Positions 28,393 through 46,369 of a stretch of 52,879 nt of DNA are shown here, in pieces. The stretch is from assembly GCA_041484785.1 (NCBI GenBank), contig JBGPIH010000003.1, forward strand, positions 1-52,879, in the 5' to 3' direction. Below the pieces are notes generated by a model. That model was not told the DNA's origin. It saw only the letters and a program-made list of their open reading frames with translations, and made no database searches. The position numbers and the translations under genes were made by a program. Position 1 is the first letter of the stretch; every line of letters begins with the position of its first letter. This DNA is from Candidatus Limnocylindria bacterium. Its GTDB lineage: Bacteria; Chloroflexota; Limnocylindria; Limnocylindrales; CSP1-4.

Positions 28393-28416
28393 CGGCGCGG
28401 TCCCGTCATCGGTCGG

Positions 28417-29763: not shown

Positions 29764-31164
29764 TCAGCGTCCCTCGAAGGCCGCGGGGATCGTCCGTGCC
29801 AGGATCTTGAGATCCAGCCAGAACGACCAGCGGTCGATATAGGCGAGGTCGAGTTCGGCGCGCTGGTCGAAGTCATTCGACCGGCGGGCAGTGACCTGCC
29901 ACAGACCCGTGATGCCGGGCTTCATCGAGAGCCGTCGCCGATGCCAGAGGTCGTAGGTGTCCACCTCGCGCGGCGGCGCGGGGCGCGGCCCGACGAGGCT
30001 CATCTCGCCGCGGAAAACGTTCCACAGCTGCGGCAGCTCGTCCAGGCTGGTGCGGCGCAGGAAGCGGCCCAGGCGCGTGACGCGGGGGTCGCGCTCCATC
30101 TTGAACGCGGGTCCGCTGCCCTCGCCCAGGTTCGCGACCTCGTCGAACCGATCCTCGGCGTCGGGGGTCATGCTCCGGAACTTGACCACTGTAAAGGCGC
30201 GCCCATGGAGGCCGATCCGGACCTGCCGGAACAGGATCGGCGACCCGTCCGAGAGACGGATCGCGATGGCGACGGCCAGCAGGATCGGGCTTAGGAGCAC
30301 GAGCCCGACCCCCGAGACCGACAGGTCGATCAGTCGCTTGACGGCCAACCCGACGGCCCGGTCCGGTCCGCTGATCAGCGAATAGACCGGTGTCCCGTCG
30401 AGATCCTCGACACGGCCCGATGCGAAGGCACGGTCGAGGAGATCCATGGGGACTCGAACGATCTTGCCCTGGTCCTCGCAGATCCGGGTGATGGCATCGA
30501 CCCGGTCCCACTGCGAGAAGGGGAGACAGACCGCCACTTCGTCGATCACCTTGGTCCGCAGGATCCGCTCGATGTCTTCCAATGCCCCGACTCGGTGCCA
30601 GCGCGCCGGGAGCGCGATCGTCGGGTCGTCGTCGATGAAGCCACGAACCTCAAGGCCGAGTTCCCGGTGGTCCTCGACCTTGGTGGCGAAGGCCTGTCCT
30701 CTTGGCCCACTCCCGACCACCAGCATGAAGCGCCGGTTGTAGCCGCGCTCGCGAAGACGACGGAAGGTCAGTCGGAGCGCCACGCGGGTGACCAGGGCGA
30801 CGAGCCACTGGGCCGGGAACAGGAAGAGCAGGAAGAGACGACTGATGTCCGGCAGGCGCACCCAGAACAGAACGGCCAGGAGGATCGCGGCCATCATCGT
30901 CGTGGCCCGCAGCAGGTCCACCGCCTCGGATCGCATGGTCCAGCGCGCCCGTGGCCGGTACAGCCCGTTGAAGGCCAGGACGGCGACCCAGGTGATCGCG
31001 TAACCGACGACGAGCAGCAGCGGGTCGAGGTCGAGTTCCTGCCAATGGACCGACCAGTCGCCGCCGAACCGGACGACCGACGCGACCACGAGCAGCCCGA
31101 TGGCCATCAGGCCATCGACCAGCATCAGCAGGGCTCGGAGCTCGTTGACGTGCTTGCGGAGCAT
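29764..31164 (-). CDS. Polyprenyl glycosylphosphotransferase (WcaJ/WbaP-like initiating transferase)
   Basis: 4 TM plus a CoA-binding-like domain; KFRSM, DPRVT, SLDELPQ, MSLVGPRP, KPGITG. Confidence 0.94.
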   Translation of the reverse strand: MLRKHVNELRALLMLVDGLMAIGLLVVASVVRFGGDWSVHWQELDLDPLLLVVGYAITWVAVLAFNGLYRPRARWTMRSEAVDLLRATTMMAAILLAVLFWVRLPDISRLFLLFLFPAQWLVALVTRVALRLTFRRLRERGYNRRFMLVVGSGPRGQAFATKVEDHRELGLEVRGFIDDDPTIALPARWHRVGALEDIERILRTKVIDEVAVCLPFSQWDRVDAITRICEDQGKIVRVPMDLLDRAFASGRVEDLDGTPVYSLISGPDRAVGLAVKRLIDLSVSGVGLVLLSPILLAVAIAIRLSDGSPILFRQVRIGLHGRAFTVVKFRSMTPDAEDRFDEVANLGEGSGPAFKMERDPRVTRLGRFLRRTSLDELPQLWNVFRGEMSLVGPRPAPPREVDTYDLWHRRRLSMKPGITGLWQVTARRSNDFDQRAELDLAYIDRWSFWLDLKILARTIPAAFEGR

Positions 31165-31224: not shown

Positions 31225-31488
31225 TCAAGGCGCCTCGAACCATTCGCGCCGGTCGGACATCCCGGGCCGGTCGATGAGCTCGCGGGTCTCGTCCTCCTGG
31301 GGAAAGATGTGGTGGTAGTACGGCTCGATCGGCTCGCCACCGACCGTGATCGCTCGGGCCAGGCCGCCCACGGTCGAGGCGGCCTCGACCAGCATCACCC
31401 GTTGAACCTGCTCGAGCGACCGCTCGGCGGCGGCCAGACCCGCCCTGCCGCCGTCGAGGACGACGGTGTCGAAACGTGGGTCAGTCAT
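31225..31488 (-). pseudogene. N-terminal remnant of an FAD-dependent oxidoreductase (HemY/amine-oxidase-like)
   Basis: Degenerate dinucleotide motif VVLDGGRAGLAAA, then EAASTVGGLA and IEPYYHHIF; stops after about 87 aa. Confidence 0.7.
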
Positions 31489-31603
31489 GCGTCGGGTCAC
31501 CTGCGGCGGGAGAAGCAGTGGCACCATACCGCCCGGCCGACGCCCGGCGATAGCCCGTTCGGGCCATGACCACGGCCGGGATACCCGCCGCAGGGCGCCC
31601 GGC

Positions 31604-31609
31604 TAGACT
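31604..31609 (+). promoter_or_regulatory. Putative leaderless -10 box TAGACT
   Basis: 7 nt before ATG 31617. Confidence 0.6.
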
Positions 31610-31616
31610 GCGCGCG

Positions 31617-32432
31617 ATGTCACCCGACCCCGGCCTCGCGATCGTCCTGCCGGCATACGACGAGGCCGAACGGATCGGTCCGGCGCTCGACGAGCTGTTC
31701 GGCTACCTGCACCGGGGCGGCGAGCTGGCCCGCGAGGGCGCGCCCGGCGCGAGCACCCTCCCGTACGAGATCGAGGTCCTCGTCGTCGACGACGGGAGCA
31801 CCGACGGGACGGCCGCCATCGTCGAGGGCAGGCCGGAGGCGGTCATCGGTGGATCGGGTGGCACGACGCTGCGGGTCATCCAAGTCCCGCACGGCGGCAA
31901 GGGCGCCGCCGTCCGGGCCGGCATGCTCGCCTCGACTTCGGACCTCGTGATCTTCGCCGACGCCGACATGGCCACCCCGCCCGACCAGCTGCCACTTCTC
32001 GTGACGGCGCTGGCGGATCACGACGTCGCCCTTGGCTCGCGGATCCAGGCCGACGGCTCTGACATGCGAACCAGCCAGCAGCCGTATCGAAGGGCGCTGG
32101 GGCGGATCTTCCACGCGCTTGCCTCGGTCTGGGTCACCGGTCCGATCAAGGACACCCAGTGCGGGTTCAAGGGGTTCACTCGAGAGGCCGCCCACGATCT
32201 CTTCGCCGCCCAGCGGATTCGCAGCATCGTCTTCGACGTCGAGCTGATCTACCTGGCTCGCCGTCGCGGCTATCGGATCGCCGTTGTCCCGGTTCAATGG
32301 GCGGACCGGCGCGGGTCGCGGATGCGGCCGCGGCTCAGCCTGGCGGCGACCGTGGCCTGGGATCTCTTCCGGATCCCGCTCCTGCATCGTGGGGTACGCC
32401 GCATTTCGCGCAGCAAGTCCCCGGCCAACTGA
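31617..32432 (+). CDS. Polyprenyl/dolichyl-phosphate beta-glycosyltransferase (ALG5/DPG synthase-like GT2)
   Basis: LPAYDE, VDDGSTD, GKGAAVRAG, FADAD, GSR, DTQCGFK, FDVE. Confidence 0.88.
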   Translation: MSPDPGLAIVLPAYDEAERIGPALDELFGYLHRGGELAREGAPGASTLPYEIEVLVVDDGSTDGTAAIVEGRPEAVIGGSGGTTLRVIQVPHGGKGAAVRAGMLASTSDLVIFADADMATPPDQLPLLVTALADHDVALGSRIQADGSDMRTSQQPYRRALGRIFHALASVWVTGPIKDTQCGFKGFTREAAHDLFAAQRIRSIVFDVELIYLARRRGYRIAVVPVQWADRRGSRMRPRLSLAATVAWDLFRIPLLHRGVRRISRSKSPAN

Positions 32433-32434
32433 TC

Positions 32435-33493
32435 GTGGCGCTCGCCCGGGCGGCACTGCCGGTCGTCGCCGTCGTCCTCTTCGCAGCGGGCTCCCTGGCC
32501 ATCATTGCGACCGCCGGATCGACCTGGGGGTACGACTACCAGGCCTACGCCCACGCGGCCCAGCGGCTGCTCGACGGCCAGCGGCTCTACGACCCCGGGG
32601 TGGACCTGGCCGGCGGGTTCGCGATCTATCTCTATCCGCCGCCGTTTGCGCTGGCGTTCGTGCCATTCGTGTGGCTCGGTGACCCGCTCGGCCTGGACGC
32701 CTGGACGGCGCTCCTCATTGGCAGCACGGTGGCCGCAATCGCGGTCATGCCCGTGTCGCCGAGGCTTCGCTGGGGGGTGCTCCTGCTCGCGGGCGTCGAC
32801 TGGCCGGTCCTGTATTCGCTCAAGCTCGGCCAGGTTGGGCCGGTCCTGCTGCTGTTGTTCGTCCTCGGCTGGCGCTGGCTGGAACGGCCCGGCGGGCTGG
32901 GCGGGACGATCGGGACTGGAGCGCTGGTCAAGCTTCAGCCGGCGCTCGTGGGTGGCTGGGCCGTCCTGACGGGCCGGTGGCGGGCGGCGCTCATCGGGTT
33001 CGGTCTGGCGGCCGGCGCATGCCTCGTGACTCTCCCGATCGTCGGGACGGCCGCGTGGGCGGACTATGTCGCGCTGCTTCGGCAGGTGAGCGCCCCGATT
33101 GTCACGCCGCACAACTTCACCCCGGGCGCCGTGCTCTATCAGGCCGGCGTCGACCAGGGCGTCGCGACCGCCGTCCAATGGCTCGTGGTGGCCGGGGCAC
33201 TCGTGCTCGTCGTCCTGGCCGCGCTGCGGTGCTCCGCCTCCGGCAGCTACGTCGTGGCCATCGTGGCGAGCCAGCTGATCTCGCCGCTGCTCTGGGATCA
33301 CTACGCCATCGTCCTGTTGCTGCCGGTCGCCTGGCTCGCTGCTCGCGGGGCGTGGTGGGCGCTGGCCATCCCGATCGTGACGTCGCTGCCACTCCTGTGG
33401 CTGGTCCCGGCGGCGGTCTACCCGATCGTCTTCATCGTGGCGCTGGTGGCGCCGATCCGCGTCGATCGCGCCCAGCGGATGGCGGCCGCGTGA
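32435..33493 (+). CDS. GT87-family membrane glycosyltransferase
   Basis: GYDYQAY...YLYPPP...LGQV...VKLQP...SPLLWDHY. Confidence 0.88.
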   Translation: MALARAALPVVAVVLFAAGSLAIIATAGSTWGYDYQAYAHAAQRLLDGQRLYDPGVDLAGGFAIYLYPPPFALAFVPFVWLGDPLGLDAWTALLIGSTVAAIAVMPVSPRLRWGVLLLAGVDWPVLYSLKLGQVGPVLLLLFVLGWRWLERPGGLGGTIGTGALVKLQPALVGGWAVLTGRWRAALIGFGLAAGACLVTLPIVGTAAWADYVALLRQVSAPIVTPHNFTPGAVLYQAGVDQGVATAVQWLVVAGALVLVVLAALRCSASGSYVVAIVASQLISPLLWDHYAIVLLLPVAWLAARGAWWALAIPIVTSLPLLWLVPAAVYPIVFIVALVAPIRVDRAQRMAAA

Positions 33494-34680
33494 TCGGCAG
33501 GCGCCCGGGCCGGGCCGTCACCATCGGGTTGGCGCTGACCGAGGCCGCGTTCGTCGTCTACTGGCTGTGCGACCGCTACTTCGACGCCGGCCGCGGCGAC
33601 TTCTTCTACCTGGCCGATGCCTTCCTGCACGGACGGACCTACCTGGACTTCCGGCCCGGGGGGAACGACGTCATCATCGTGGGCGGTCGGTTCTACGTGC
33701 CGTTCGCGCCGTTCCCGGCGATCGCCCTGATGCCGCTGATCGCGCTGATCGGCCCCGTCACCGCGGACCAGATCGAATCGGGGATCAATGCCGCCCTGGC
33801 CGCCGGGTGCGTGGGCATGGGCTGGTGGCTGGTGGGGCGGATCGGCGTCGCGCGCCTGCGCGATCGGTTCTGGCTGACCCTGCTGCTTGGTTTCTCGACC
33901 CAGATCCTGTGGGTCACGACCCGTGGGGGCGTCTGGCACACGGGGCACCTCATCGCGACGATCCTGACGCTGGGCTGCCTGATCGAGCTGTTCGGCAGCC
34001 GTCGAGCGTGGCTGATCGGGCTGCTTGCGGGAGCGGCGTTCCTGACCCGGGCACCGCTGGCGTTCGCCCTGCCGTTCTACGCGCTGTTGGTCGCCCCGAT
34101 GCCGTTGCCCGGCCCCCGGGCCTGGCCATGGCGCGATTGGGCGTGGCTGGTCATCGGCGCGCTCCCATCGATCGCGTTCTTCTTCCTGTACAACCAGCTT
34201 CGGTTCGGGTCGCTCTTCGAATCCGGCTACGCGCTGGCCACGCTGCCGGCATGGCTCGAGGCGCAGCGGCAACAGGGCCTGTTCGCGCTGGTCCACGTCC
34301 CGATGAACCTCGACTACCTGTTCTACCACCTGCCGTCCTTCATCCCTGAGCCGCCGTTCTTCAAGCCGGATGGCCTCGGCATGTCCGTACTGATCACGAG
34401 CCCGGGCCTCCTCTACGCGATCCGCGCGGACTGGCGGCGGGCGACCCCGTGGTTGCTGCTGGGCGCCGCGATCGCGGTTCTGGTCCCGACGCTGCTCTAC
34501 TACGGCGGCGGCTGGCTCCAGTACGGGTATCGCTACTTCCTGGACTCCGTGCCGTTCGTCATCGCGCTATGCGCGCTCGCGGCGGTTCGCCGCGGATCGA
34601 TCGCCCTGGGCTGGCGGGTGCTGATCGTGGCTGGGACCATTGTCATGTTCGTCGGCGTGTACTGGGCGTACCACCTGTGA
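33490..34680 (+). CDS. GT-C-like multi-TM protein (putative glycosyltransferase)
   Basis: GDFFYLADAFLHG, AFLTR, YNQLRFGSLFESGY, YGYRYFLD; GTGA overlap. Confidence 0.7.
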   Translation: MIGRRPGRAVTIGLALTEAAFVVYWLCDRYFDAGRGDFFYLADAFLHGRTYLDFRPGGNDVIIVGGRFYVPFAPFPAIALMPLIALIGPVTADQIESGINAALAAGCVGMGWWLVGRIGVARLRDRFWLTLLLGFSTQILWVTTRGGVWHTGHLIATILTLGCLIELFGSRRAWLIGLLAGAAFLTRAPLAFALPFYALLVAPMPLPGPRAWPWRDWAWLVIGALPSIAFFFLYNQLRFGSLFESGYALATLPAWLEAQRQQGLFALVHVPMNLDYLFYHLPSFIPEPPFFKPDGLGMSVLITSPGLLYAIRADWRRATPWLLLGAAIAVLVPTLLYYGGGWLQYGYRYFLDSVPFVIALCALAAVRRGSIALGWRVLIVAGTIVMFVGVYWAYHL

Positions 34681-34716: not shown

Positions 34717-37017
34717 ATGCGTCGTAACGCCCTCCTCCTCGGGATCTTCACCCTCTCGGGGGCGGCGGGCCTGATCTACGAGATCGTCTGGTCGCGCCAG
34801 CTCGTGCTCGTCTTCGGGAACACGACCCAGGCCATCTCGGCGATCCTGACCGGGTTCTTTGCCGGGTTGGCGATCGGGGCCGTCGTCGGTGGCCGGATTG
34901 CCGACCGGGTCCGCTCCCCGCTCCGGATGTACGGGATCCTGGAGATCCTGCTCGTTGCCGTCGTGCTGGTGACGCCGGTCTCGTTCCGGTTGATTCACGA
35001 GGTCTACCGCGGGATCTATCCCTCCATCGAGGGGACGGCTGCGCTGCCGCTGCTGCGGCTCGTCCTGGCTGTGGTCGCCGTCTCTCCCGCCACGATCATG
35101 ATGGGCGCGACGTTCCCGAGCCTGGTTCGCCACTTCACGCGGTCGGCCCAGCTCAGCCACTCCTTTGGCCGGCTCTATGCCGCCAACACCTTCGGCGCGA
35201 TCGTCGGGACGCTGGTGGCGGGCCTGGCCCTGATCGAGATCCTCGGTCTCTCCGGGGCGTTGACCGTTGGTGCCGGCTGCTCGTTCATCGCGGGTATCTC
35301 GGCCGTCTGGCTGTCACGGACGGACCCGCAACCGGTCGACAGGGCTGGCTCGATGCCTGTCGACAACGCCGAATCGTCGGGCCGTCCGTCACGGCCGTCG
35401 CGGATGCGGCTGGCGCTGACGATCGCCTTCATCTCCGGGTTGACCTCGCTCGGGTACCAGGTGACCTGGACCCGGTTGCTGGCATCGGGGACCGGGAACA
35501 CGACCTATGTGTTCACCGTGATCCTGGGGGTCTTTCTCGCCGGGATCGCGATCGGGGCGATGATCTTCAACGTGCTGCGTCCGCGCCTGCGTGACCCGAT
35601 TCGCGTCCTGGCACTCACGCAGGTGCTCCTGGCGGCCTTCGTGATCATCGGCCTGGTCACAGGGCTGACCCATCCGAACAGCGTCAACCCCAACCACCCC
35701 ATCGAGACGGTGATTTCGCTGCTCGGGTCAGCAGTGCGAACGATCCTGCCGGCAACGATCGTCCTCGGGATCGCGTTTCCTATATCGTCCGCCCTGCTCC
35801 GCGAGGATGGATCGGAACCCGGCACCGATTCGGGCTCACTGCTGGCAGTCAACACGACGGGGGCCATCCTTGGCAGCCTGATCGTGCCGTTCATCCTCAT
35901 GCCCACGATCGGTTCGCCGGCGGTGCTGGCGCTCCTGGCCGCCATCAACGGCGGCGTGGGGATCTGGCTCGGGCTGATCAGCCGGCCGCGCGGCATGCCG
36001 AGCGTCCTCTTTGGCTTCGCGTCGTTGATCGCGGTCGTCGCCGTGGTCGCCGTTCCCGGCCTGATCACCCAGCCGAACGCGTACCTTGTGGTCAAGTCGG
36101 GCGGCGACCTGTTCGCGTCCACCGAGGACGAGATTGCGTCCGTCCAGGCCGGTGAGACGAGCTTAACCCCCCAGCTCTGGGTGGCCGGCACGGCGATGAC
36201 CGTCCTGACCGTGGACGCGAAGCTCATGCCGATCCTGCCCCTCATCGCGCGGCCTGGCTCACGGGACGCGCTGGTCGTGGCGTTCGGGATGGGGACCGCG
36301 TTCCGGTCCGCGCTTATCGCCGGCCTGCACACCGACGTCGTCGAGCTGGTGCCGTCGGTCCCAGGGATGTTCCCGTTCTACTACTCCGATGCGGCAGACG
36401 TGCTGGCCGACCCAAACGGGCACGTGATCATCGCGGATGGCCGGAATCACCTGGAGCTGACCGACAATCGCTACGACATCATCGTGACCGACCCGCCGCC
36501 GCCCATTGAGAGCTCCGGGGCCTCGGTCATCTCGTCGCGCGAGTACTACGAGGCCGGCCGGATGCATCTCACCGCCGACGGAATCATGATGGAGTGGGTC
36601 CCGTACGGCCAGACGATCGACGAGTTCAAGACGCACGTCCGAGCCTTCGCGTCCGTCTTCCCGCAGGTCACGATCGTGTTCGGGCCCGGTGGTTACGGGA
36701 CCTACATGCTTGGGTCGAGTGACCCCGTCGCCTTCGATCCCGACGCGATCCGGACGGTCCTGGCCCGTCCGGGGATTCTCGATGACATTTCGTCCGCGTA
36801 TGACAGCCCGACGCGGTCGGTCGACGGGTGGATCGCCGAGATCGACCAGCTGACGTGGATCTCGGGATCGGCCGTGGCGAGATTCGCGGGCGACGGACCG
36901 ATGGTGACCGACGACCGTCCGCTGTCTGAGTACTTCCTGCTCCGACGCCTTGGCGGGACGCATTCGCCGATCGCGGTGCCCTCCACGCTCCGCGCCGCAA
37001 CCGTGTCGGGCGGTTGA
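34717..37017 (+). CDS. Fused MFS-like / spermidine-synthase-like (SAM-fold) membrane protein
   Basis: Internal 6+6 TM repeat (SGAAGLIYEIVWSR..GNTT / SGLTSLGYQVTWTR..GNTT), a 13th helix, then AFGMG, VVEL, ADGRNHL, YDIIVTDPP, TDDRP. Confidence 0.88.
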   Translation: MRRNALLLGIFTLSGAAGLIYEIVWSRQLVLVFGNTTQAISAILTGFFAGLAIGAVVGGRIADRVRSPLRMYGILEILLVAVVLVTPVSFRLIHEVYRGIYPSIEGTAALPLLRLVLAVVAVSPATIMMGATFPSLVRHFTRSAQLSHSFGRLYAANTFGAIVGTLVAGLALIEILGLSGALTVGAGCSFIAGISAVWLSRTDPQPVDRAGSMPVDNAESSGRPSRPSRMRLALTIAFISGLTSLGYQVTWTRLLASGTGNTTYVFTVILGVFLAGIAIGAMIFNVLRPRLRDPIRVLALTQVLLAAFVIIGLVTGLTHPNSVNPNHPIETVISLLGSAVRTILPATIVLGIAFPISSALLREDGSEPGTDSGSLLAVNTTGAILGSLIVPFILMPTIGSPAVLALLAAINGGVGIWLGLISRPRGMPSVLFGFASLIAVVAVVAVPGLITQPNAYLVVKSGGDLFASTEDEIASVQAGETSLTPQLWVAGTAMTVLTVDAKLMPILPLIARPGSRDALVVAFGMGTAFRSALIAGLHTDVVELVPSVPGMFPFYYSDAADVLADPNGHVIIADGRNHLELTDNRYDIIVTDPPPPIESSGASVISSREYYEAGRMHLTADGIMMEWVPYGQTIDEFKTHVRAFASVFPQVTIVFGPGGYGTYMLGSSDPVAFDPDAIRTVLARPGILDDISSAYDSPTRSVDGWIAEIDQLTWISGSAVARFAGDGPMVTDDRPLSEYFLLRRLGGTHSPIAVPSTLRAATVSGG

Positions 37018-37028
37018 GGGGACCGGCC

Positions 37029-38294
37029 GTGAGGTCTCGACGGCTGCTCGTCCGCCTGGGTCTCGCGGCAGGGGCGTCTGTCTTCGCGCTCTATCTGGGC
37101 CTGTGGGGCGCGCTGATCGGGGGTGGTTCGGATGGGGCCGACTTCACCGCGTTCTACACAGGCTGGACGATGGTCGCCGACAGTCGCGGCGCCGAACTGT
37201 ACGACCCGACTGCCCAGGCACAGGTCCAGAAGGAGATCCTCGAAGGGCGCACGTTCAAGGCTGGCCTCAATCCGTTCAACAACCCGCCGCACCTCGTGCT
37301 GCCGTTCGTGCCTTTCGCCGCCTTACCCTTGCGAACCGCGTATCTGGTATGGGGCGCCGTCCAGGTCGGCCTGCTCGGCTGGATGCTCTTGCGATTGCTC
37401 ACGCGGGTCGCGGGCGGCTGGTCGCGCGAGGAACGGACGCTGCTCGTCGGCGCGTCGATCGCCGCGCCACCGCTCGCGCTCGCGCTGCTCCAGGGCTCGC
37501 TGTCGCTGCTGGTGGCGGTTGCGCTGCTGGAGGCCTACCTCGCGCTGCGAGTGGGCGGCGTTCGAGGGGCCGTGGCGGGGTTGGTGGCGGCCTCGGTCAA
37601 GCCGCAGGCCGTGCTGACGACCGGTGTCGCGCTGCTGGTCGGCCGGCGCTGGGCGGTTATCGGATGGAGCGCCCTGGCGGGCGTGCTGCTGGCGGCGTCC
37701 GCGACGGTCGTCATGGGCGTGGGGATCTGGACCGCCTACCTTCGATTCCTGGGCGACTACGTCGGCTCGTTCGACGTCTTCAGCGTTCGTCCTTCGGTCA
37801 TGTGGAACCTGCGCGGGACACTGGCCCTCCTCTCGGGACCGGAGCTTAGCGCGGCGCAGGCCAACCTCGTGAACACGCTGGCCCTGGCCGGTCAGGTCGC
37901 GGCGCTGGCCGCGGTCGCCTGGCTGTGGCGCGGGCGGTGGGACCCGGGGCGTCCGTCGTTCGCCCTGCGCTTCAGCCTGACCATCGTCCTCGGCCTGCTG
38001 TTCAGCCCGCACCTGAACCCGCACGACGACCTCCTGCTCGTGCCGGCCGCGGCCATCGCCTATGACGTGCTGCGTGAAGGAACGATCGGGCGCCCGCTGG
38101 GCGTCGCCATGTTCGCGGCGCCGTTCCTCGTCCTGGTCGTGAACGGGCTCAGCGTGAACGAGGTTGGCGGGCCGCCGATCCGGCTCCCGGTTCTACTGAT
38201 GCTGACGTTCTGTGCGGTGCTGGCCTGGGCCCTGGCCGCGCGTTCGAGCCCACCAGGCGATCAGGGGAAAGAGGCAGACGGTGTTCTCGCTTAG
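37029..38294 (+). CDS. GT87-family membrane glycosyltransferase
   Basis: GADFTAFY...LYD...NNPP...LQGS...VKPQ...SPHLNPHD; SD-like GAGG before GTG 37029 (alternative TTG 37014). Confidence 0.85.
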   Translation: MRSRRLLVRLGLAAGASVFALYLGLWGALIGGGSDGADFTAFYTGWTMVADSRGAELYDPTAQAQVQKEILEGRTFKAGLNPFNNPPHLVLPFVPFAALPLRTAYLVWGAVQVGLLGWMLLRLLTRVAGGWSREERTLLVGASIAAPPLALALLQGSLSLLVAVALLEAYLALRVGGVRGAVAGLVAASVKPQAVLTTGVALLVGRRWAVIGWSALAGVLLAASATVVMGVGIWTAYLRFLGDYVGSFDVFSVRPSVMWNLRGTLALLSGPELSAAQANLVNTLALAGQVAALAAVAWLWRGRWDPGRPSFALRFSLTIVLGLLFSPHLNPHDDLLLVPAAAIAYDVLREGTIGRPLGVAMFAAPFLVLVVNGLSVNEVGGPPIRLPVLLMLTFCAVLAWALAARSSPPGDQGKEADGVLA

Positions 38295-39008
38295 GGTGTA
38301 TTCCCAGCCCCGACCTCGGGCGTCCGCGATGACCCGGAAGTAGTCCGGCCACATCGGGAGGAAGGCCAGCGACACGAGCCCCAGGATCCCGAGGGCGAGC
38401 CACCAGTCGCGTCGCCTGATGCCGAGCAGGCCGAACGGGAAGAAGGTCGGCTTGACGAACACGAGCACGCCCATGGGTCGCCACCGGGTCGAGACGGCGA
38501 CCGCCGCGCCGATCCACATGGTCGGGTTGCCCTTGATGAACGTGTTGGCGAAGCCGGTGCCGGCCACCATGCACAGCGTGAGCAAGGGCCAGACCCACAA
38601 CGACGGGCGGTAGTAGACGACCACGCCCAGGATGATTGCGATCGGGATGACCCACCAGATGAAGGCCGGCAGCCACAGGAACGGAACGAAGAGCAGCAGG
38701 CTCGGCGGCGGGTAGAGTGAATCGCCGTTCTGGATGAGGTACGGGCCGGCGAGCTGGCGGGCGAGGTAGAAGCCACGGCCTGCCACGAAATCGGCGGCCC
38801 GATCCTGGTAGATGTGGAAGTCGAGGCCCATCCCGAGCTGGATGGCGCCCAGGATCAGCCACTCCAGCCCGAGGGCCAGGAAGATCCCGGTCGCCAGCAG
38901 CACGACGAGTCTCGTTCGCCCGGTCGGCGGTCGCTCCCGCACCGTGTCCTGGGCTCGGGCCAGGACGTTGACTACGACATGCCAGCGCGCGATGAGCGCA
39001 GGTCCCAC
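38193..39008 (-). CDS. Small GT87-like membrane glycosyltransferase, paralog of 5098-5898
   Basis: GLDFHIY...ARQLAGPY...LYPP...KGNP...VKP; start uncertain. Confidence 0.72.
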   Translation of the reverse strand: MGPALIARWHVVVNVLARAQDTVRERPPTGRTRLVVLLATGIFLALGLEWLILGAIQLGMGLDFHIYQDRAADFVAGRGFYLARQLAGPYLIQNGDSLYPPPSLLLFVPFLWLPAFIWWVIPIAIILGVVVYYRPSLWVWPLLTLCMVAGTGFANTFIKGNPTMWIGAAVAVSTRWRPMGVLVFVKPTFFPFGLLGIRRRDWWLALGILGLVSLAFLPMWPDYFRVIADARGRGWEYTLSENTVCLFPLIAWWARTRGQGPGQHRTERQHQ

Positions 39009-39010
39009 GC

Positions 39011-41173
39011 TCAGCCCTCGGACCCGACCGCCGTCAGGTCCGGCGCCGGTGTGATCGCCGCCCGCTCGTCGACCAGGTCTCGATCGGCCAGCAGCCGGAC
39101 GCGCCGGGCGAGGACGAAGGCGGCGACGTAGAGCAGGCCGACGACCACCAGCAGGGTCCGGAACCCCGTCAGCAGGGCGATGTACTCGAGCACCCCGCCG
39201 AACATCGCGCCGAGCAGGTTGGATGCGAACGCCATGTCCGCCGAGGCCGTGTCGCGGAACGAGTTGGTGAACACCAGGTTGGCGAAGAAGACGGGAGCGA
39301 AGGCGATCGCGGCCGACAAGGCATAGCGCAACTCGGGCGGGTCGATCAGCAGGGCATCCGCCGGGATCAGCCAGGCGATCGCGATCGCCACGAATAGGGC
39401 GCCATAGAGGAGTGCCGGGCTCTTCGGCCGGAACCTCGCGTTGATCGAGATCGCCAGCAGGACGCTGGCGAGGATCGCGAAGAAGGCCAGCGCGTTGACG
39501 ACCCACGTGGTCCCGAAGAGCAGGCTGAATGACACCAGGCTCTTCGTCTCCAGCAGCAGGAAGGCGACCCCGAGCGTGAAGAAATGCGGGCTGAAGCGGC
39601 GGATCGGGGTGGTCGTGACGCGAGCGGCGCCAGCGACCGCTACCAGCGCGAAGAGCAGCACGAACGCGAGGCCGGCCAGGTAGTACGGGGCGATGCTGCC
39701 AGTCCGGAGGTAGAGGAACGGCCAATCGTCCGTGGCCGGGCGCGGATCAGGCGTCCCGACGGTTGGGATGGCGTCCACCCTGCCGCCCGGCGGCTGGGCG
39801 CCGTGCAGGGCGTCAACGGCGGGACCGGCGGCCAGGATGGCCGCCGCCGTCGACTCGAGCCGCAGCAGCGGTGCGCTGCCGAAGACGTCTGCGATCATCG
39901 AATCGAGCTTGGTCACCAGCCATGGTTCGCGGTACAGGTTGTACATCGCGAACAAGCCGCCAGGCGCGAGGTGGTCGCGCGCTTCGCGCATCGATTCCTC
40001 GGTGAACAGGAACGATTCGAGCCGGACGCCCGCCGTGGAGCTGACCAGCGTCAGCGAGTCCGTCACGGCGTAGACGATCAGGTCGTACTTGTCGGGCGAC
40101 TGGTTGAGGAACGCCCGGCCGTCGTTGACATGAACCGTCACGCGTGGGTCGTTGTAGACGCCTTCGGGATGGAAATCCCGTCCGATCTGGGCAAGCTCGG
40201 GGTCGATCTCGACCGCGTCCACGTGCTTCGCGCCTTTCGACAGCGCCAGTGCGGTGTCAGTCCCCGAGCCGGCGCCGATGACAAGGACGCGGTCGAAGGT
40301 TCGATTCGGGAACCAGTCATACAGCTGGCGGTGGAGATCGCTCCTGGCCGCCGCCACCGAATCCCAGATCTGCTGGTGGGGGATGCCATCCACGGACAGG
40401 AAGTACGGCGGCAGCCGATCGGCGGGGTTCATCGAGGCATGCTTCAGGTCCGTGCCGTAGCCCGAGATCCGGTAGTAGGGCGACCAGACATCCAGGCTCG
40501 CGCTGCCGACGGCAGCGCTGGCCCCGATGACCAGGACCATTGCGATGCCGCTGAGGGCGGACCACGGCGTCGCCCCGGTCCCCAACGCCAGGAGCAGAAG
40601 CAACGCGCCCGTGACCGCGAACCAGGCCGTTGGGCCGGTCCCCAGGTAGGCCAGCACCGTGAACCCGGCGATACCGATCATCGAGCCGGAGATGTCGATC
40701 GCGTAGGCGCGCAGCGGCGGCATCGAGCGAAGGAGCGGCCCCAGGGGCAGCGCCAGCGACGCCATCAGGGTGGCGACCAGGACGACGAGCAGCGGCAGGA
40801 CGACGAAGTTGACGTCGGCGCTGTTCGACGTGTCGAGGCCAAAGATGATTTCGCTCGCGTCGCGTGCCTGGATGTTCAGCTGTGCGCCGTAGACCAGGAA
40901 GATGGTCCCAAGCAGGAGCGCCGGGAACGGCGAGATGACCAGGCGCCGATCGCGTCGCCCGAGCAGGATGCCAACACCGATGCCGAGGAAGCTGGCCATC
41001 AGCAGGAAGTTGCTGAAGAAGCCGACGTACGTGACGTTGGCCGGGATCCATCGGATCAGGAGCAGCTCGACGAACAGCAGCGTCGCGCTGGTGAGCAGCA
41101 ATCGAATCGGGGCGCCAGCGAGCAGCCGCACGGGCGCGAATGGCTGGCGAGGGTCAGGCAGGCGGCGGGCCAT
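39011..41173 (-). CDS. Membrane protein with a spermidine-synthase-like SAM-fold domain inserted between two TM bundles
   Basis: 7 TM, WSPYYRI, VLVIGAGSG, AVEIDP, NDGRAFL, ATDDWPFLY, then 7 TM. True start is ATG 41173; the track's longer ORF is antisense to the GNAT gene. Confidence 0.87.
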   Translation of the reverse strand: MARRLPDPRQPFAPVRLLAGAPIRLLLTSATLLFVELLLIRWIPANVTYVGFFSNFLLMASFLGIGVGILLGRRDRRLVISPFPALLLGTIFLVYGAQLNIQARDASEIIFGLDTSNSADVNFVVLPLLVVLVATLMASLALPLGPLLRSMPPLRAYAIDISGSMIGIAGFTVLAYLGTGPTAWFAVTGALLLLLALGTGATPWSALSGIAMVLVIGASAAVGSASLDVWSPYYRISGYGTDLKHASMNPADRLPPYFLSVDGIPHQQIWDSVAAARSDLHRQLYDWFPNRTFDRVLVIGAGSGTDTALALSKGAKHVDAVEIDPELAQIGRDFHPEGVYNDPRVTVHVNDGRAFLNQSPDKYDLIVYAVTDSLTLVSSTAGVRLESFLFTEESMREARDHLAPGGLFAMYNLYREPWLVTKLDSMIADVFGSAPLLRLESTAAAILAAGPAVDALHGAQPPGGRVDAIPTVGTPDPRPATDDWPFLYLRTGSIAPYYLAGLAFVLLFALVAVAGAARVTTTPIRRFSPHFFTLGVAFLLLETKSLVSFSLLFGTTWVVNALAFFAILASVLLAISINARFRPKSPALLYGALFVAIAIAWLIPADALLIDPPELRYALSAAIAFAPVFFANLVFTNSFRDTASADMAFASNLLGAMFGGVLEYIALLTGFRTLLVVVGLLYVAAFVLARRVRLLADRDLVDERAAITPAPDLTAVGSEG

Positions 41174-41308: not shown

Positions 41309-42502
41309 GTGACCCCCACCACCCTCGACGCGGAGCCTGCTTGTCCGGCCCCGACCGAGACTCGACAAGCACCGGATCGTGTGCTCGCGGGGGCGTTCCA
41401 CGCCGAGCGGCGCAACGTCGCTGACATCCCGCGGGAATCCTGGGACGCGCTTGCCGCGCTGACCCCGTGGGCGACGCCGTTCTCGGGCTGGGCATTCCAG
41501 CGCGCCTGGTGGGACGCCTACGCCGAGAACGCGCACGAGGAGACCCTCCTGGTCTGCGCCTACGGGCCCGCCGGATCGGAACCCGTCGCCATCGTCCCGC
41601 TCATGCACCGCCACGAGGTCGAGCCGGGCGACGCGCTGATTCACACGACGATGCGGCACGGCGCCGGCGTCGAGCTGACGCGGGTCGAGCCGACCGCGAC
41701 CGCGGTCTTCTTCGGCGCCTCGTACCACGCGGACTACGCCACGATCCTGGGCGCGCCGGCCGACATGCCGGCGATCGCGGCGGCCGTCGCCGATCATCTC
41801 GTCGCCACCGGTGGCCGCCGACGGTGGGACGCCGTCGACCTGCGCCGGCTCCGCTGCGGCGACCCGGCGGCCGATGCCCTCGCCGCGGCATTCGGTGCGC
41901 GCGAGATCGCCGAAGGCTGGACGCTCAACGTGGAGCGCGAGGACGTCTGCCCGGTCGTCCACCTGCCGGTTGCCGCCTCCATGGACGACTACCTCGGGAC
42001 CCTCGGCAAGAAGGTGCGCCACGAGGTCCGGCGCAAGGTCCGCCGAGCCGAGGCGGCCGGCGCGGTTCGCCTCGAGGACTCGGCCGATCCGCGGGCCGAC
42101 CTGGAGGCCTTCATCGACCTGCACCAGAAGCGCTGGGGTTCGGACGGGCTCTTCCCGGACACGCCCGGCGGCGCCCAAAGCCGGGTCTTCTTCCGACGCC
42201 TGTTCGAGCTCGCCGGCGTCGAAGGCCCGCGACTCACCTTCCTGACCGTCGGTGGCCAGCGGATCGCGGCCGGGGTCCACTTCGAGACCGCGGACGGGAT
42301 CATGTACTACAACGCCGGAGTGGATCCGGACGCCCGCGACCTGTCGCCCGGCGTGCTCATGGTCCATGCCTACCTGGAACGCGCCCTCGCCGCCGGCAAG
42401 CGTCGGGTCGATTTCATGCGCGGCAACGAGCCTTACAAGTACGAATGGGGCGCCGAGGATGAGCCCATCCAGCGCATCCTCGTTCGCCGGCGGAACGGCT
42501 GA
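41309..42502 (+). CDS. GNAT-family acetyltransferase (CelD/BcsL-like)
   Basis: TPFSGWAFQRAWW, ADY, DYLGTLGKKVRHEVRRK, YNAG, SPG, DFMRGNEPYKYEWG. Confidence 0.88.
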   Translation: MTPTTLDAEPACPAPTETRQAPDRVLAGAFHAERRNVADIPRESWDALAALTPWATPFSGWAFQRAWWDAYAENAHEETLLVCAYGPAGSEPVAIVPLMHRHEVEPGDALIHTTMRHGAGVELTRVEPTATAVFFGASYHADYATILGAPADMPAIAAAVADHLVATGGRRRWDAVDLRRLRCGDPAADALAAAFGAREIAEGWTLNVEREDVCPVVHLPVAASMDDYLGTLGKKVRHEVRRKVRRAEAAGAVRLEDSADPRADLEAFIDLHQKRWGSDGLFPDTPGGAQSRVFFRRLFELAGVEGPRLTFLTVGGQRIAAGVHFETADGIMYYNAGVDPDARDLSPGVLMVHAYLERALAAGKRRVDFMRGNEPYKYEWGAEDEPIQRILVRRRNG

Positions 42503-42503
42503 A

Positions 42504-43718
42504 TTGAGCGCGCCGCTGCCCTGGGATCCGTGCCTGGAGCCCGTCGCTCGCGGCGCCCTGGCCGGCGGCCGCCCGATCCGGGTCGTTGAGGTCCTCGCAA
42601 CCGGCACGAACGGCGGCGCCCAGGAGCACCTCCATTCGCTGGTCACCCGGATGGACCCGCAGCGCTACGACGTCTCGGTCGTGGCCCTGTCCACCGGCAG
42701 CGCGGTGCGCAAGCTGGTCAAGGCCGGCGTCGCCGTCCTGGTCATCGACGATCCGGACGACTCGATCGCCGTTGGCGCGCTGGCCGCGCACCTGGCCGAG
42801 ATTCGCGCCGACGTCGTCCACGCCCACATGTATCGAGCCGAGAGCGTCGCCACGCGTGCCGTGGTCGCGCTCGGCGAAGCCGGCCAGCGCAAGCCGTACC
42901 TCGTCGCGACGATCCACTCGAGCCGGATCCGCTCGCTCGACGACCAGCGCCACCTGCGCGAGCTGACCCCGTACATGGACCGGCTCATCGCCGTCTCCCG
43001 GGCGATCGAACACAAGCTCATCGACGAGGAGCGGACGACCGTCCCGGTCAGCCTCGTCTACAACGGCGTTGATCTCCAGCGCTACGACAACCAGGAAGCC
43101 TGCTGCACGCTCCCCGAGGAGTACGGCATGGAGCCCGGCTCGCAGATCGTGGGCGTCGTCGCGCGCCTCGAGCCGGAGAAGGGGCACCCCACGCTGCTCG
43201 AGGCCTGGCCGGCCGTCCTGCGCGCCTGTCCCGGCACGTACCTGCTGATCGTGGGCGAGGGGAGCCGCCGCGACGCGCTGGAGGCCCAGGCGCGCGAGCT
43301 CCGGATCGCCCATCGCGTGATCTTCACCGGGCGGCGCGACGACGTGCCGGCTGTGACCGCCGCGCTGGACGTCGCGGTGCTGCCGTCGTACCGCGAAGCC
43401 CAGGGGATGGTGATCCTGGAGGCGATGGCGCTGTCGCGGCCGGTCGTGGCCTCGAACGTGGGCGGGATCCCGGAGATGATCGAGGACGGGAAGACGGGGC
43501 TGCTCGTGCCGCCCCACGATGCCGAGGCGCTGGCGGCGGCGATCGTTCGGCTGCTGACCAACCACCCGCTGGCCGACACGCTTGGGCGGGCCGGCCACGA
43601 CATGGTCCACGACCGCTTCTGCATCGAGCTCATGGTCGGCGCCATCGAATCGATTTACGACGAGGGGGCCGCCTTCGTACGGCCGTCCGAGGTCCCGGCG
43701 GTGGCGGTCGCCGGCTGA
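42504..43718 (+). CDS. GT4-family glycosyltransferase
   Basis: GGAQ, YNGVD, ARLEPEKG, EAQGMVILEAMA, GGIPE; TTG start 42504. Confidence 0.9.
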   Translation: MSAPLPWDPCLEPVARGALAGGRPIRVVEVLATGTNGGAQEHLHSLVTRMDPQRYDVSVVALSTGSAVRKLVKAGVAVLVIDDPDDSIAVGALAAHLAEIRADVVHAHMYRAESVATRAVVALGEAGQRKPYLVATIHSSRIRSLDDQRHLRELTPYMDRLIAVSRAIEHKLIDEERTTVPVSLVYNGVDLQRYDNQEACCTLPEEYGMEPGSQIVGVVARLEPEKGHPTLLEAWPAVLRACPGTYLLIVGEGSRRDALEAQARELRIAHRVIFTGRRDDVPAVTAALDVAVLPSYREAQGMVILEAMALSRPVVASNVGGIPEMIEDGKTGLLVPPHDAEALAAAIVRLLTNHPLADTLGRAGHDMVHDRFCIELMVGAIESIYDEGAAFVRPSEVPAVAVAG

Positions 43719-44953: not shown

Positions 44954-46369
44954 ATGACCCTGCCAAGACTCTGGGCGTTTCTGGCGATCGCGCTCCCGAC
45001 GCTGGCCGCGCTGGTCGCCGCTACGTCGACCATCGACCTTGCGTACCAACTGCGAGCCGGGGCACAGATACTCGACGGTGGAGGGATCCCCGCAGTCGAC
45101 ACCTGGACCTTCACCGCTGCCGGCCTGCCCTGGTTCGATCAGCAATGGGGCGCGCAGGTCGTTCTGGGTGGCGTCTATCGATCGGCCGGCTGGACTGGAC
45201 TCATCCTCCTGCGGGCCGGCCTGGTCGCCCTTATCTTCGGTTCATTGTGTGAGATTGGGCGTCGACACGCTATCGGGTTGCGGTGGGCGTCATGGCTGAC
45301 CCTGGCCGCATTCGTTGTCAGCGCGCCGGCCCTTGCACTCCGTCCCCAACTCGGAGGCATGGCCCTCTTCGCGGTCATCCTACTGCTCGTTGCAGACCGG
45401 CGCGCCCATCCTCGACGGCTCTGGGCGGTCCCGGTCCTGGTGGCGATCTGGGCCAATGTGCATGGAAGCTTTCCCCTCGGCCCCCTGGTTCTGACCATCG
45501 CCTGGCTGCACGATGTCCACGATCGCGTCGAGAGGCCCCATCTGACGCTCGTCGTCAGCATCGTCAGTGTCGCGGCCGCCTGCATGACCCCATTCGGCCC
45601 GCTGGTCTGGGGATACGCCGCGGGCCTATCAGTGAACCCCGCAGTGACGGCCCGGACCTCGGAGTGGCTGCCGACATCTCTACGAGACGTCCCGGGGCTC
45701 CTGTTCTTTGCGTCCGCGGTAGCCGTCCTGACGCTGGTCGCCAGGCGTGGCCGTACGACCTCATGGCCGACCCTTGTTGGGCTTGTGGTCTTTCTGGGCA
45801 TCGGCACCTACGCCGTTCGAGGGGTCGCCTGGTGGACGCTTGCGGCGGTTCCCATGGTCGCCTCGCTCCTGCCTAGCCGCGCGCATGCGCCACCCGCGAG
45901 CCAATCATCCATGTCGCGGCGCCTCAATCTCACCGTCGTCGCGGCCGTCGCCCTCGCCGGCGTAGTCGCGCTCCCGGTGTGGCGTCCCATCGACAGAAGT
46001 ACGGGAGCTCCAGCGAATGTCCTTCGCGATGCGCCGCCGGGGATCAGCGCGGCCCTGCATGCTCTGGCCAGCCCGGGGGCCCGGCTCCTCAACCCACAGC
46101 CTTGGGGCTCATGGTTCGAGTTCGCCGAGCCGGGCGTCCAGGTCGCCGTCGACGCCCGGATCGAGCTGTTTCCGGCGGATGTCTGGGGAGCGTACTCCGA
46201 TGTTATTGCCGGCCGTGGGGATTGGTCGGCTATGCTTCGCCGTTGGGGTGTCACGATCGCAGTCGTCGACGATCGCCGAGGCGACCTCGCGAATCGCCTG
46301 GAGGACGCCGGATGGTCTCGCGTCTACGAGGATGACGACGGGGCCGTTTTCGCCGCTCCCGCTCGGTAG
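44954..46369 (+). CDS. GT-C-like multi-TM protein (putative glycosyltransferase)
   Basis: DLAYQLRAG first loop, LRPQ, WANVHGSF, SEWLP; soluble C-terminal domain with VDARIE. Confidence 0.7.
   Translation: MTLPRLWAFLAIALPTLAALVAATSTIDLAYQLRAGAQILDGGGIPAVDTWTFTAAGLPWFDQQWGAQVVLGGVYRSAGWTGLILLRAGLVALIFGSLCEIGRRHAIGLRWASWLTLAAFVVSAPALALRPQLGGMALFAVILLLVADRRAHPRRLWAVPVLVAIWANVHGSFPLGPLVLTIAWLHDVHDRVERPHLTLVVSIVSVAAACMTPFGPLVWGYAAGLSVNPAVTARTSEWLPTSLRDVPGLLFFASAVAVLTLVARRGRTTSWPTLVGLVVFLGIGTYAVRGVAWWTLAAVPMVASLLPSRAHAPPASQSSMSRRLNLTVVAAVALAGVVALPVWRPIDRSTGAPANVLRDAPPGISAALHALASPGARLLNPQPWGSWFEFAEPGVQVAVDARIELFPADVWGAYSDVIAGRGDWSAMLRRWGVTIAVVDDRRGDLANRLEDAGWSRVYEDDDGAVFAAPAR

Follow-up and report, generated by a model that had tools for sequence, protein, structure and literature searches.

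In a 52,879-nucleotide stretch of Candidatus Limnocylindria bacterium DNA (contig JBGPIH010000003.1 of assembly GCA_041484785.1; hereafter the window), two genes encode membrane proteins whose homologues are named spermidine synthase in source databases, yet the catalytic domain of each appears to lie on the outer side of the membrane. The question is whether these proteins make polyamines from decarboxylated SAM (dcSAM), or whether they are SAM-dependent methyltransferases served by their own transporter. The initial annotation proposed the latter on three grounds: the loss of the aminopropyltransferase GGGDG motif, an odd number of helices before the SAM-fold domain, and the convergence of the two genes around two GT87 genes. 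It inferred that the MFS-like part delivers SAM for extracytoplasmic methylation of a GT-C-built glycan, and that two architectures reach this solution. These observations were confirmed in the present analysis. The interpretation drawn from them is supported only in part, as set out below. The two proteins, here called P1 and P2, and the genes between them are arranged as follows.

34717..37017 (+), P1, 766 aa: a 12-helix MFS (residues 1-425), a 13th helix (427-450) and a spermidine-synthase-fold domain (451-766)
34717..35331 (+), P1 MFS N-half, helices 1-6 (residues 1-205)
35410..35991 (+), P1 MFS C-half, helices 7-12 (residues 232-425)
35995..36066 (+), P1 helix 13, the linker predicted to carry the chain to the outer face
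36067..37014 (+), P1 SAM-fold domain, with key residues G524-M525-G526, E543, D574-G-R-N, D592-P-P-P-P and T731-D-D-x-P-x-x-E-Y
37014..38294 (+), GT87 (GT-C) glycosyltransferase, 426 aa, directly downstream of P1
38193..38999 (-), short GT87-like GT-C protein, about 268 aa (start uncertain), directly downstream of P2
39011..41173 (-), P2, 720 aa: seven helices, a spermidine-synthase-fold domain, then seven helices
40496..41173 (-), P2 helices 1-7 (residues 1-226), the predicted MFS N-bundle plus a linker helix
39692..40495 (-), P2 SAM-fold domain (residues 227-494), with key residues G300-A-G-S303-G304, E322, D351-G-R, D372 and T481-D-D-W-P
39014..39691 (-), P2 helices 8-14 (residues 495-720), a linker helix plus the predicted MFS C-bundle

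The two gene pairs converge, with P1 followed by a GT87 gene on the forward strand and P2 followed by a GT87 gene on the reverse strand. The two GT87 reading frames overlap tail to tail at 38193-38294. The forward gene scores 73.5 bits against Pfam GT87, and the shorter reverse gene scores 29.2 bits against a cut-off of 25.

The membrane part of P1 is a full MFS built from a repeated helix module. Profile alignment of its two halves with hhalign gave a probability of 100 (E 1.2e-44), and the NCBIfam model NF037959 ('fused MFS/spermidine synthase') matches twice, with positions 2-184 on the N-half and positions 12-200 on the C-half. In addition, a motif-A-like G(R/K)xxD(R/K) lies in loop 2/3. 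Helix 13 is strongly hydrophobic (Kyte-Doolittle mean 2.48 for residues 432-450), is modelled by AlphaFold2 as a helix at 427-445, and is preceded by a loop 12/13 holding 2 Arg. P2 carries the homologous domain between helices 7 and 8 of a 14-helix bundle that is predicted to fold as one MFS, and its linker helices are also strongly hydrophobic. However, the MFS assignment of P2 rests on predicted fold alone, as there was no Pfam MFS hit and the hhalign probability was at most 23. Its relation to NF037959 is inconsistent, since it was not listed in one search and scored 45.7 bits in another. The soluble domain of P1 matched the spermidine synthase structures 1inl in a PDB sequence search (E 2.4e-08) and 1uir_B in a Foldseek search (E 2.5e-09), and the N-terminal beta domain of the spermidine synthase fold is present in both proteins. 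The P1 and P2 domains are homologous to one another (hhalign probability 99.3, E 4.4e-20). Thus, the suggestion of two different architectures was supported.

The possibility that P1 and P2 are true aminopropyltransferases, making or attaching polyamines from dcSAM as the database names say, was considered first. It has some support in the shared fold and in the Pfam Spermine_synth hit to P2 (46.5 bits). However, P1 falls below the Pfam cut-off (21.8 against 22.9), and both proteins score far below the speE equivalog cut-off of TIGR00417 (34.5 and 41.2 bits against 249.55). P1 has VVAFGMGT and P2 has VIGAGSGT where aminopropyltransferases have GGG(D/E)G. In family alignments, the dcSAM-selecting acid of GxG(D/E)G was found in 0 of 81 P1-family sequences (M65 G5 I3 A3 V2 S2 T1) and 0 of 51 P2-family sequences (S42 T8 A1). 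Furthermore, Pfam AdoMet_dc (AdoMet decarboxylase) was found in 0 of 31 genomes of the lineage, including 0 of 11 that are at least 90% complete, while the control was detected in 7 of 14; the genome of the window is itself only 75% complete. Of the 18 same-genus genomes among the 31, 13 carry NF037959 matches. An aminopropyltransferase function is therefore regarded as very unlikely, and this part of the initial annotation was supported.

Other residues of the cofactor site are retained. The acid at the end of strand 2 is kept in 81 of 81 P1-family sequences (position 543; E71, D10) and 51 of 51 P2-family sequences (E322), and the Asp of the DG motif is kept in 81 of 81 (D574) and 51 of 51 (D351). 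An Asp aligned to the catalytic position is also invariant (D592 in 81 of 81; D372 in 51 of 51). These roles, including ribose and adenine binding, are assigned from alignments to 1inl and 1uir and by analogy with spermidine synthase structures. The equivalence of D372 is ambiguous, as HMMER aligns it to the second Asp of DxxD, with Ala at the first, whereas BLAST against P1 aligns it to D592.

Several lines of prediction place the domain on the outer face. The family mean of Lys+Arg is 21.4 in loops assigned inside and 5.2 in loops assigned outside for P1, and 20.1 against 3.2 for P2. Both soluble domains are acidic (19 K/R and 37 D/E in P1; 22 and 34 in P2). An MFS has both ends and its central loop in the cytoplasm, and exactly one extra helix (P1), or one on each side of the insert (P2), is what is needed to bring the domain to the other face. 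A complex model of P1 split at 450/451 gave an ipSAE of 0.82 (runs 0.82, 0.83 and 0.82) against a best control of 0.00, with at least 98% of contacts agreeing between runs and partner pLDDT of at least 89. The same mark was reached by 58 of 80 solved complexes and 2 of 110 mismatched pairs, although these counts hold only roughly here because a custom alignment was used and an unscored SAM ligand was included. In this model, the domain touches the MFS at 27-39, 98-105, 169-179, 253-266, 317-329 and 391-401, which are all six outer loops, and none of the inner loops. The domain residues in contact include 544, 573-577, 595-601, 609 and 732-745. The chain break leaves helix 13 with the MFS, and the two halves come from one gene, a case that tends to pass such a test. 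It remains possible that the topology is wrong and that the domains are cytoplasmic, using cytoplasmic SAM on a membrane-bound or exported acceptor, since every argument for the topology rests on prediction and SAM is a cytoplasmic metabolite. However, given the charge bias, the canonical MFS fold of P1 with its extra helix, the two extra helices of P2, and modelled contacts only on the loops opposite the N-terminus and the motif-A loop, this reading is considered very unlikely.

The modelled position of the domain as a lid on the outer mouth, with its ligand-pocket motifs at the interface, is also what a non-catalytic capture domain would look like. Such a domain, similar to a fused solute-binding protein, would bind an adenosyl compound or an amine from outside (SAM, SAH, MTA, a nucleoside or a polyamine) and hand it to the MFS for uptake. 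This reading needs no SAM export, and it fits both the conserved ribose- and adenine-binding acids and the lack of glycan context in distant family members. Against it stand the invariant Asp at the catalytic position, the genomic context conserved within the class (described below), and the presence of three paralogues in the genome. In addition, the only characterised protein found to combine a multi-helix membrane part with a spermidine-synthase-like domain is an enzyme. This explanation is considered unlikely. An equally unlikely alternative is that the domain is an outward-facing methyltransferase but the MFS handles the acceptor (a lipid-linked sugar, a glycolipid or a lysolipid), as with the lipid-flipping MFS proteins LtaA and Spns, in which case the SAM supply would come from elsewhere or remain unexplained.

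That enzyme, the fungal N-terminal histidine methyltransferase NHMT (Aspergillus nidulans AN4663; PMC10349129), is the closest characterised relative. It has seven transmembrane helices followed by a spermidine-synthase-like seven-beta-strand domain, was annotated as a spermidine synthase, and has Ile322 in place of the D/E of GxG(D/E)G. It resides in the ER and methylates His1 of secreted LPMOs; a lumenal domain is inferred here, as the word 'lumen' does not occur in the text of that paper. The first half of P2 has the same layout. NHMT is eukaryotic, and its authors found the 7TM sequence only in filamentous fungi and no structural match for it. P1 and P2 carry a whole MFS (12 helices plus linkers). 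Among bacterial families, P1 is a member of NF037959 (100.8 bits, cut-off 40), but that model covers one helix module plus the domain, whereas in P1 the module is duplicated into a full MFS. P1 scores 82.9 bits against a cut-off of 472 for PRK03612 (membrane-bound polyamine aminopropyltransferase). Literature searches found no functional study of the family and no paper on the bacterial proteins. Compared with the soluble spermidine synthases (SpeE; 1inl, 1uir and 3o4f), the whole fold, the acid after strand 2, the DG Asp and, in P1, the Asp aligned to the catalytic Asp are kept, but P1 and P2 lack the dcSAM-selecting acid, are membrane-embedded and are predicted to face outward.

A precedent for SAM transport by an MFS is available from eukaryotes only. 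MFS members are putative importers of SAM into the plant Golgi (GoSAMTs), where lumenal methyltransferases modify polysaccharides (bioRxiv 10.1101/2021.07.06.451061). There, the transporter and the enzymes are separate proteins and the lumen is closed; in P1 and P2 the two are fused and the outer space is open. A working analogy is provided by the OafA/OatA-type AT3-SGNH acyltransferases, in which a membrane domain passes a group from a cytoplasmic cofactor to a fused outer domain that decorates an envelope glycan, although the folds, the group transferred (acetyl) and the cofactor (acetyl-CoA) all differ.

The acceptor was approached through the neighbouring genes, whose recurrence was counted among 79 P1 loci.

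31566..32432 (+), GT2, a candidate polyprenyl-phosphate sugar synthase: Pfam Glycos_transf_2 83.8 bits; best NCBIfam matches, all below cut-off, dolichyl-phosphate hexose transferase (53.2 bits), then AglJ and ArnC; 32 of 79 loci
32420..33493 (+), GT87 glycosyltransferase (start uncertain): Pfam GT87 80.8 bits; 33 of 79 loci
33490..34680 (+), GT-C-like membrane protein (start uncertain), directly upstream of P1 and its most constant neighbour: no Pfam hit, atlas lead to PMT_2-like clusters; 35 of 79 loci
41309..42502 (+), FemAB-like GNAT (Acetyltransf_6): 98.7 bits; 34 of 79 loci
42600..43718 (+), GT4 glycosyltransferase (start uncertain): Pfam Glyco_trans_1_4 152.7 bits; 38 of 79 loci
44954..46369 (+), polytopic protein with no family, possibly another GT-C: no Pfam or NCBIfam hit, atlas leads of 0.92-0.93 to PMT_2 and GT87 clusters; 30 of 79 loci

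The cassette GT2 - GT87 - GT-C - P1 ... GNAT - GT4 thus recurs, and a short GT87 lies beside P2-type genes in 4 of 19 further loci (numbered L116, L117, L119 and L122 in this analysis). However, the GT-C neighbourhood is conserved only within this Chloroflexota class. Among 89 neighbour ORFs of 26 more distant P1 loci, no GT-C family is among the 25 commonest listed (the top being MFS_1, 4 of 89), and 15 of 19 P2 loci lack a GT87 neighbour. That the acceptor is the GT-C-built glycan, as the initial annotation proposed, was therefore not shown. Sugar O-methylation was likewise not shown, and an amine (N-methylation) is at least as likely an acceptor as a sugar hydroxyl. The characterised enzymes of this fold encountered here, namely the spermidine synthases, METTL13 (the eEF1A N-terminal methyltransferase) and NHMT, act on amines or on an N-terminal histidine, and as far as is known all of them alkylate nitrogen. 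P1 also has an invariant D-P-P-P-P motif.

Taken together, the favoured but still tentative explanation is that P1 and P2 are outward-facing SAM-dependent methyltransferases of the spermidine-synthase fold, each built onto a complete MFS transporter. The in silico evidence shows the fold, the missing dcSAM-selecting acid, the retained cofactor-binding acids, the predicted topology, the modelled docking and the clade-limited synteny, whereas SAM binding, SAM transport by the MFS, catalysis and the acceptor are inferred. The model was read from its contacts, without the position of the ligand, and a path for SAM from the MFS cavity to the pocket likewise remains an inference. In this view, the domain would sit as a lid on the extracytoplasmic mouth with its cofactor-binding face turned toward it, and the MFS would bring SAM from the cytoplasm and perhaps take SAH back; a point against this reading is that SAH released outside would be a costly loss unless it is recycled. 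The domain would then methylate an envelope acceptor, which in this lineage is most likely a product of the neighbouring GT-C / polyprenyl-phosphate-sugar pathway. Such an arrangement would put SAM chemistry outside a bacterial cell membrane.

The window has about 65-72% G+C and lies in a metagenome-assembled genome of 3.0 Mb that is estimated to be 75% complete. Named relatives of its proteins are Chloroflexota, including Candidatus Limnocylindrales. Two genes for proteins designated P1 and P2 converge here, each followed on its own strand by a GT87 gene:
34717-37017, + strand: P1, 766 aa
37014-38294, + strand: GT87 gene following P1 (73.5 bits)
38193-38999, - strand: short GT87 gene following P2 (29.2 bits, cut-off 25)
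39011-41173, - strand: P2, 720 aa
The observation made in the initial annotation, that these genes converge around two GT87 genes, was therefore correct. The two convergent GT87 reading frames overlap tail to tail by 102 bases (38193-38294; the + gene stops at 38294 and the - gene at 38193), which is an unusually long 3' overlap. An Rfam search of the window at gathering thresholds returned 0 matches, so there is no SAM riboswitch or other known RNA.

In P1, Pfam identified MFS_1 over residues 8-386 (41.2 bits, cut-off 33.4), whereas Spermine_synth scored just under its cut-off (21.8 against 22.9). P1 belongs to NCBIfam NF037959, "fused MFS/spermidine synthase" (100.8 bits, cut-off 40), and the helix module of this model matches P1 twice. 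The two halves of the membrane part are an unmistakable repeat (hhalign probability 100, E 1.2e-44), and this part has the 12-helix major facilitator superfamily (MFS) fold of two 6-helix repeats. E76, N157, R253 and N379 are invariant membrane residues. The AlphaFold2 (AF2) model is very confident (pLDDT 93.8, pTM 0.93), and between the MFS and the spermidine synthase (SpdS)-fold domain lies one more hydrophobic helix (427-450). Motif A of the MFS has the form G-x-x-x-D-(R/K)-x-G-R-(R/K) and lies in loop 2/3. P1 reads GGRIADRVRSPLR there, with G59 kept in 72 of 81 family sequences, R/K60 in 67 of 81, D63 in 47 of 81 and R/K64 in 67 of 81, while P2 reads GRRDRR but with the Asp kept in only 3 of 51.

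In P2, Pfam identified Spermine_synth (46.5 bits), and the AF2 model (pLDDT 82.1, pTM 0.84) shows seven helices, the SpdS-fold domain, and seven more helices. P2 thus reads as an MFS whose central loop holds the domain flanked by two linker helices, although this assignment rests on predicted fold only, given that Pfam MFS_1 does not hit P2 and hhalign sees no similarity between its halves or to those of P1. A similarity seen by eye between the two helix bundles of P2 and the repeat of P1 was not borne out (hhalign probabilities of 0.2 to 23), and the claim of sequence homology was dropped in favour of the fold match alone. With respect to NF037959, the result for P2 is inconsistent: it was not listed in the NCBIfam search but scored 45.7 bits in the six-frame genome search. 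The two SpdS-fold domains are homologous (hhalign probability 99.3, E 4.4e-20; BLAST 29% identity over 122 residues, E 7e-07).

Both proteins share the SpdS fold, comprising an N-terminal beta domain and a Rossmann domain, but several features argue against aminopropyl transfer. In alignments to the spermidine synthase structures 1inl and 1uir, the acidic residue of GxG(D/E)G that binds the amine of dcSAM is Met in P1 (M525) and Ser in P2 (S303), and it is acidic in 0 of 81 P1-family and 0 of 51 P2-family sequences. The same single-residue argument was used by the authors of the study of the fungal methyltransferase NHMT (PMC10349129). Scores also lie far below the curated equivalog cut-offs, with P1 at 34.5 and P2 at 41.2 bits against 249.55 for TIGR00417, and at 37.3 and 50.1 bits against 260 for PRK00811. 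The other cofactor contacts, and with them the features of a class I SAM-dependent methyltransferase, are kept: in P1, G524 in 81 of 81 and G526 in 80 of 81 for the GxGxG of motif I, the acid at the end of strand 2 (E/D543) in 81 of 81, and the DG Asp of motif III (D574) in 81 of 81; in P2, G300, G302 and G304, E322 and D351, each in 51 of 51. Pfam Methyltransf_25 on P2, however, scores 25.8, below its cut-off of 27. An invariant Asp lies at or next to the catalytic position of the D-x-x-D segment. D592 of P1 aligns to the first Asp of 1inl and is kept in 81 of 81, whereas in P2 the alignments disagree: HMMER puts Ala at that place and D372 at the second Asp, whereas BLAST aligns D372 with D592 of P1.

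Other family members also lack the acid. A third membrane-embedded SpdS-like paralogue in the window's genome (locus L080, 675-2963, - strand; 762 aa; motifs GLGTG, DAFSSD and LTDDFSD) matches NF037959 at 53.2 bits and has no acidic GxGxG residue. Its neighbours are enoyl-CoA hydratase, HMGL-like, HNH and CCA-adding enzyme genes, not a glycan locus. A canonical NF037959 gene in a same-genus genome (locus L081, about 943-2770) reads IGGGGF and GDAFGG in its domain, and is split between two frames near locus position 1900-2100 by either a frameshift or an assembly error.

A source of dcSAM was sought in the window's genome and 30 relatives. AdoMet decarboxylase (AdoMet_dc, PF02675) was found in 0 of these 31 genomes, including 0 of 11 that are at least 90% complete, while the control was positive in 7 of 14 and the window's own genome is incomplete. 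A search with PF01536 (SAM_decarbox) found 0 of 31 genomes but also 0 of 14 controls, and is uninformative. Of the 18 same-genus genomes, 13 have NF037959 matches. If this lineage makes spermidine at all, it may have to use a route that does not need dcSAM. True aminopropyl transfer is regarded as the most remote of the alternatives.

Three lines of prediction agree in placing the domain outside. First, the family mean of Lys+Arg is 21.4 in the loops assigned inside against 5.2 outside for P1, and 20.1 against 3.2 for P2. Second, an MFS has its termini and central loop in the cytoplasm, and a cytoplasmic domain would need no extra helix, yet P1 has exactly one and P2 has one on each side of the insert. 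Third, a complex model of P1 split at 450/451 scored 0.82 in the median of three runs against a best control of 0.00, with the runs agreeing in at least 98% of their contacts and partner pLDDT of at least 89. This mark was reached by 58 of 80 solved complexes and 2 of 110 mismatched pairs, although these counts hold only roughly here. The MFS residues at the interface are 27-39, 98-105, 169-179, 253-266, 317-329 and 391-401, which are all six outer loops and none of the inner ones. The domain residues include 544, 573-577, 595-601, 609 and 732-745, which are the cofactor motifs, the DPPPP loop and the conserved TDDxPxxEY tail. The domain is thus modelled as capping the outer mouth with its active-site face turned inward, with the caveats that the two chains are halves of one gene, that the ligand was neither scored nor located, and that the result rests on reported contacts rather than inspected coordinates. 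A wrong topology is considered very unlikely. Two other readings, each considered unlikely, are a non-catalytic capture domain feeding an importer and an MFS that handles the acceptor rather than SAM.

Among 79 genome loci with P1 relatives, tblastn finds the window's neighbours in a fixed order: GT2 - GT87 - GT-C - P1 ... GNAT - GT4 - unnamed polytopic protein - UDP-sugar dehydrogenase. The GT-C gene was found in 35 of 79, GT87 in 33, GT2 in 32, GNAT in 34, GT4 in 38, the unnamed polytopic protein in 30 and the short GT87 in 24, and a separate P2-type gene lies beside P1 in 7 of 79. These loci are all Chloroflexota of the same broad group, and many are short contigs with little flank, so these counts are lower bounds. 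The GT2 resembles polyprenyl-phosphate sugar synthases, below cut-offs, and atlas searches for two unnamed membrane proteins gave only leads. Two further features lie upstream:
24343-31164, - strand: operon of four genes, an AsnB-like amidotransferase, a fused zinc-ADH / GFO-IDH-MocA oxidoreductase (717 aa), a UDP-sugar dehydrogenase and a Bac_transf phosphoglycosyl transferase
31225-31527, - strand: 100-aa ORF matching only the first ~70 positions of the flavin amine oxidase family (Amino_oxidase, 35.6 bits)
The operon suggests that an amino- or amido-uronic acid sugar is made here, which could offer a nitrogen acceptor. The 100-aa ORF looks like an N-terminal fragment lying between the phosphoglycosyl transferase gene and the GT2 gene.

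The GT-C link does not hold across the whole family. Around 26 P1 loci lacking the cassette (Dormibacterota, Actinomycetota and other Chloroflexota), 89 neighbour ORFs show no recurring family; the commonest was MFS_1 (4 of 89), and no GT-C family was among the 25 listed. Only the two nearest ORFs on each side were kept for this count, each at least 120 aa, passing a GC3 filter and under 1400 aa (89 of 163 ORFs). P2-type proteins occur in 31 of 301 sampled Chloroflexota genomes and 25 of 171 genera. Among 112 neighbour ORFs of 19 P2 loci, a set that left out locus L113 as a near relative of the window, Pfam found GT87 in 7 and PMT_2 in 3, and a purpose-built GT87 HMM found 9 ORFs, all in 4 loci of the window's class, where a short GT87 lies next to the P2-type gene. 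In one genome (locus L117), two P2-type genes (7932-9863 and 16829-18778) lie within 10 kb, with four GT87-like ORFs and PMT_2-like ORFs between and around them. The locus therefore looks like a pathway that builds a glycan outside from lipid-linked sugars, but the family as a whole is not tied to such pathways.

The closest characterised protein is fungal NHMT, which has 7 TM plus a SpdS-like domain and Ile at the acid position, is resident in the ER, and is the only enzyme that methylates His1 of secreted LPMOs (PMC10349129). NHMT (AN4663) has 452 fungal homologues and a conserved segment at 389-394. Residues 1-494 of P2 have the corresponding layout of seven helices followed by the SpdS-like domain, with the non-acidic S303. 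The NHMT authors note that SAM supply in the ER may limit the enzyme and cite Golgi SAM transporters (PMC10349129), which are MFS members (bioRxiv 10.1101/2021.07.06.451061). P1 and P2 would join the two functions in one chain, and they are therefore read, tentatively, as outward-facing SAM methyltransferases supplied by their own MFS. What the analysis itself establishes is computational, namely the conserved and missing residues, the predicted folds and topology, and the clade-limited gene order, whereas SAM binding, methyl transfer, SAM transport and the acceptor are inferred. The interpretation offered in the initial annotation, that the MFS-like part delivers SAM for extracytoplasmic methylation of the GT-C-built glycan, is thus supported only in part.

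The characterised enzymes of this fold named in the literature consulted, the spermidine synthases, METTL13 and NHMT, act on amines or on an N-terminal histidine, which are, as far as we are aware, all nitrogen nucleophiles. The invariant D-P-P-P-P of P1 also recalls the (D/N)PP(Y/F) motif of amino-methyltransferases, by analogy only. N-methylation of an amino sugar, a lipid head group or a protein terminus is therefore as plausible as O-methylation.

Literature searches found no paper on the bacterial fused proteins or on membrane-bound spermidine synthases that was relevant by title or abstract, none on bacteria among follow-ups of NHMT, and none on periplasmic or extracytoplasmic methyltransferases, extracytoplasmic methylation or SAM in the periplasm, within the one library searched. 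A membrane-anchored SpdS-like methyltransferase is already known from one fungal enzyme, whereas, as far as that library shows, the full-MFS fusion in two permuted layouts and the predicted lid-over-mouth geometry are new. A more far-reaching reading, doubtful on present evidence but not excluded, is that these proteins are self-contained cofactor shuttles, in which an MFS would exchange cytoplasmic SAM for spent SAH directly beneath a lid-like methyltransferase domain, so that the cofactor never escapes and SAM-dependent methylation takes place on the outer face of a bacterial cytoplasmic membrane. In this view, the very large "fused MFS/spermidine synthase" family and, by architecture, fungal NHMT would be versions of the same machine, and the one-module forms would pair up to make the MFS.

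The outer face of the bacterial membrane is generally taken to lack SAM, and the envelope modifications known to us there use lipid-linked donors or groups passed through a membrane domain. If P1 and P2 work as proposed, they would add methylation to the chemistry available outside the cell and would show how the cofactor problem is solved. They would also give a bacterial counterpart to fungal NHMT, whose membrane part and SAM supply are unexplained (PMC10349129). The family is very large, with 24,921 representative clusters at E up to 0.001, and is systematically named spermidine synthase, so a corrected function would change many annotations.
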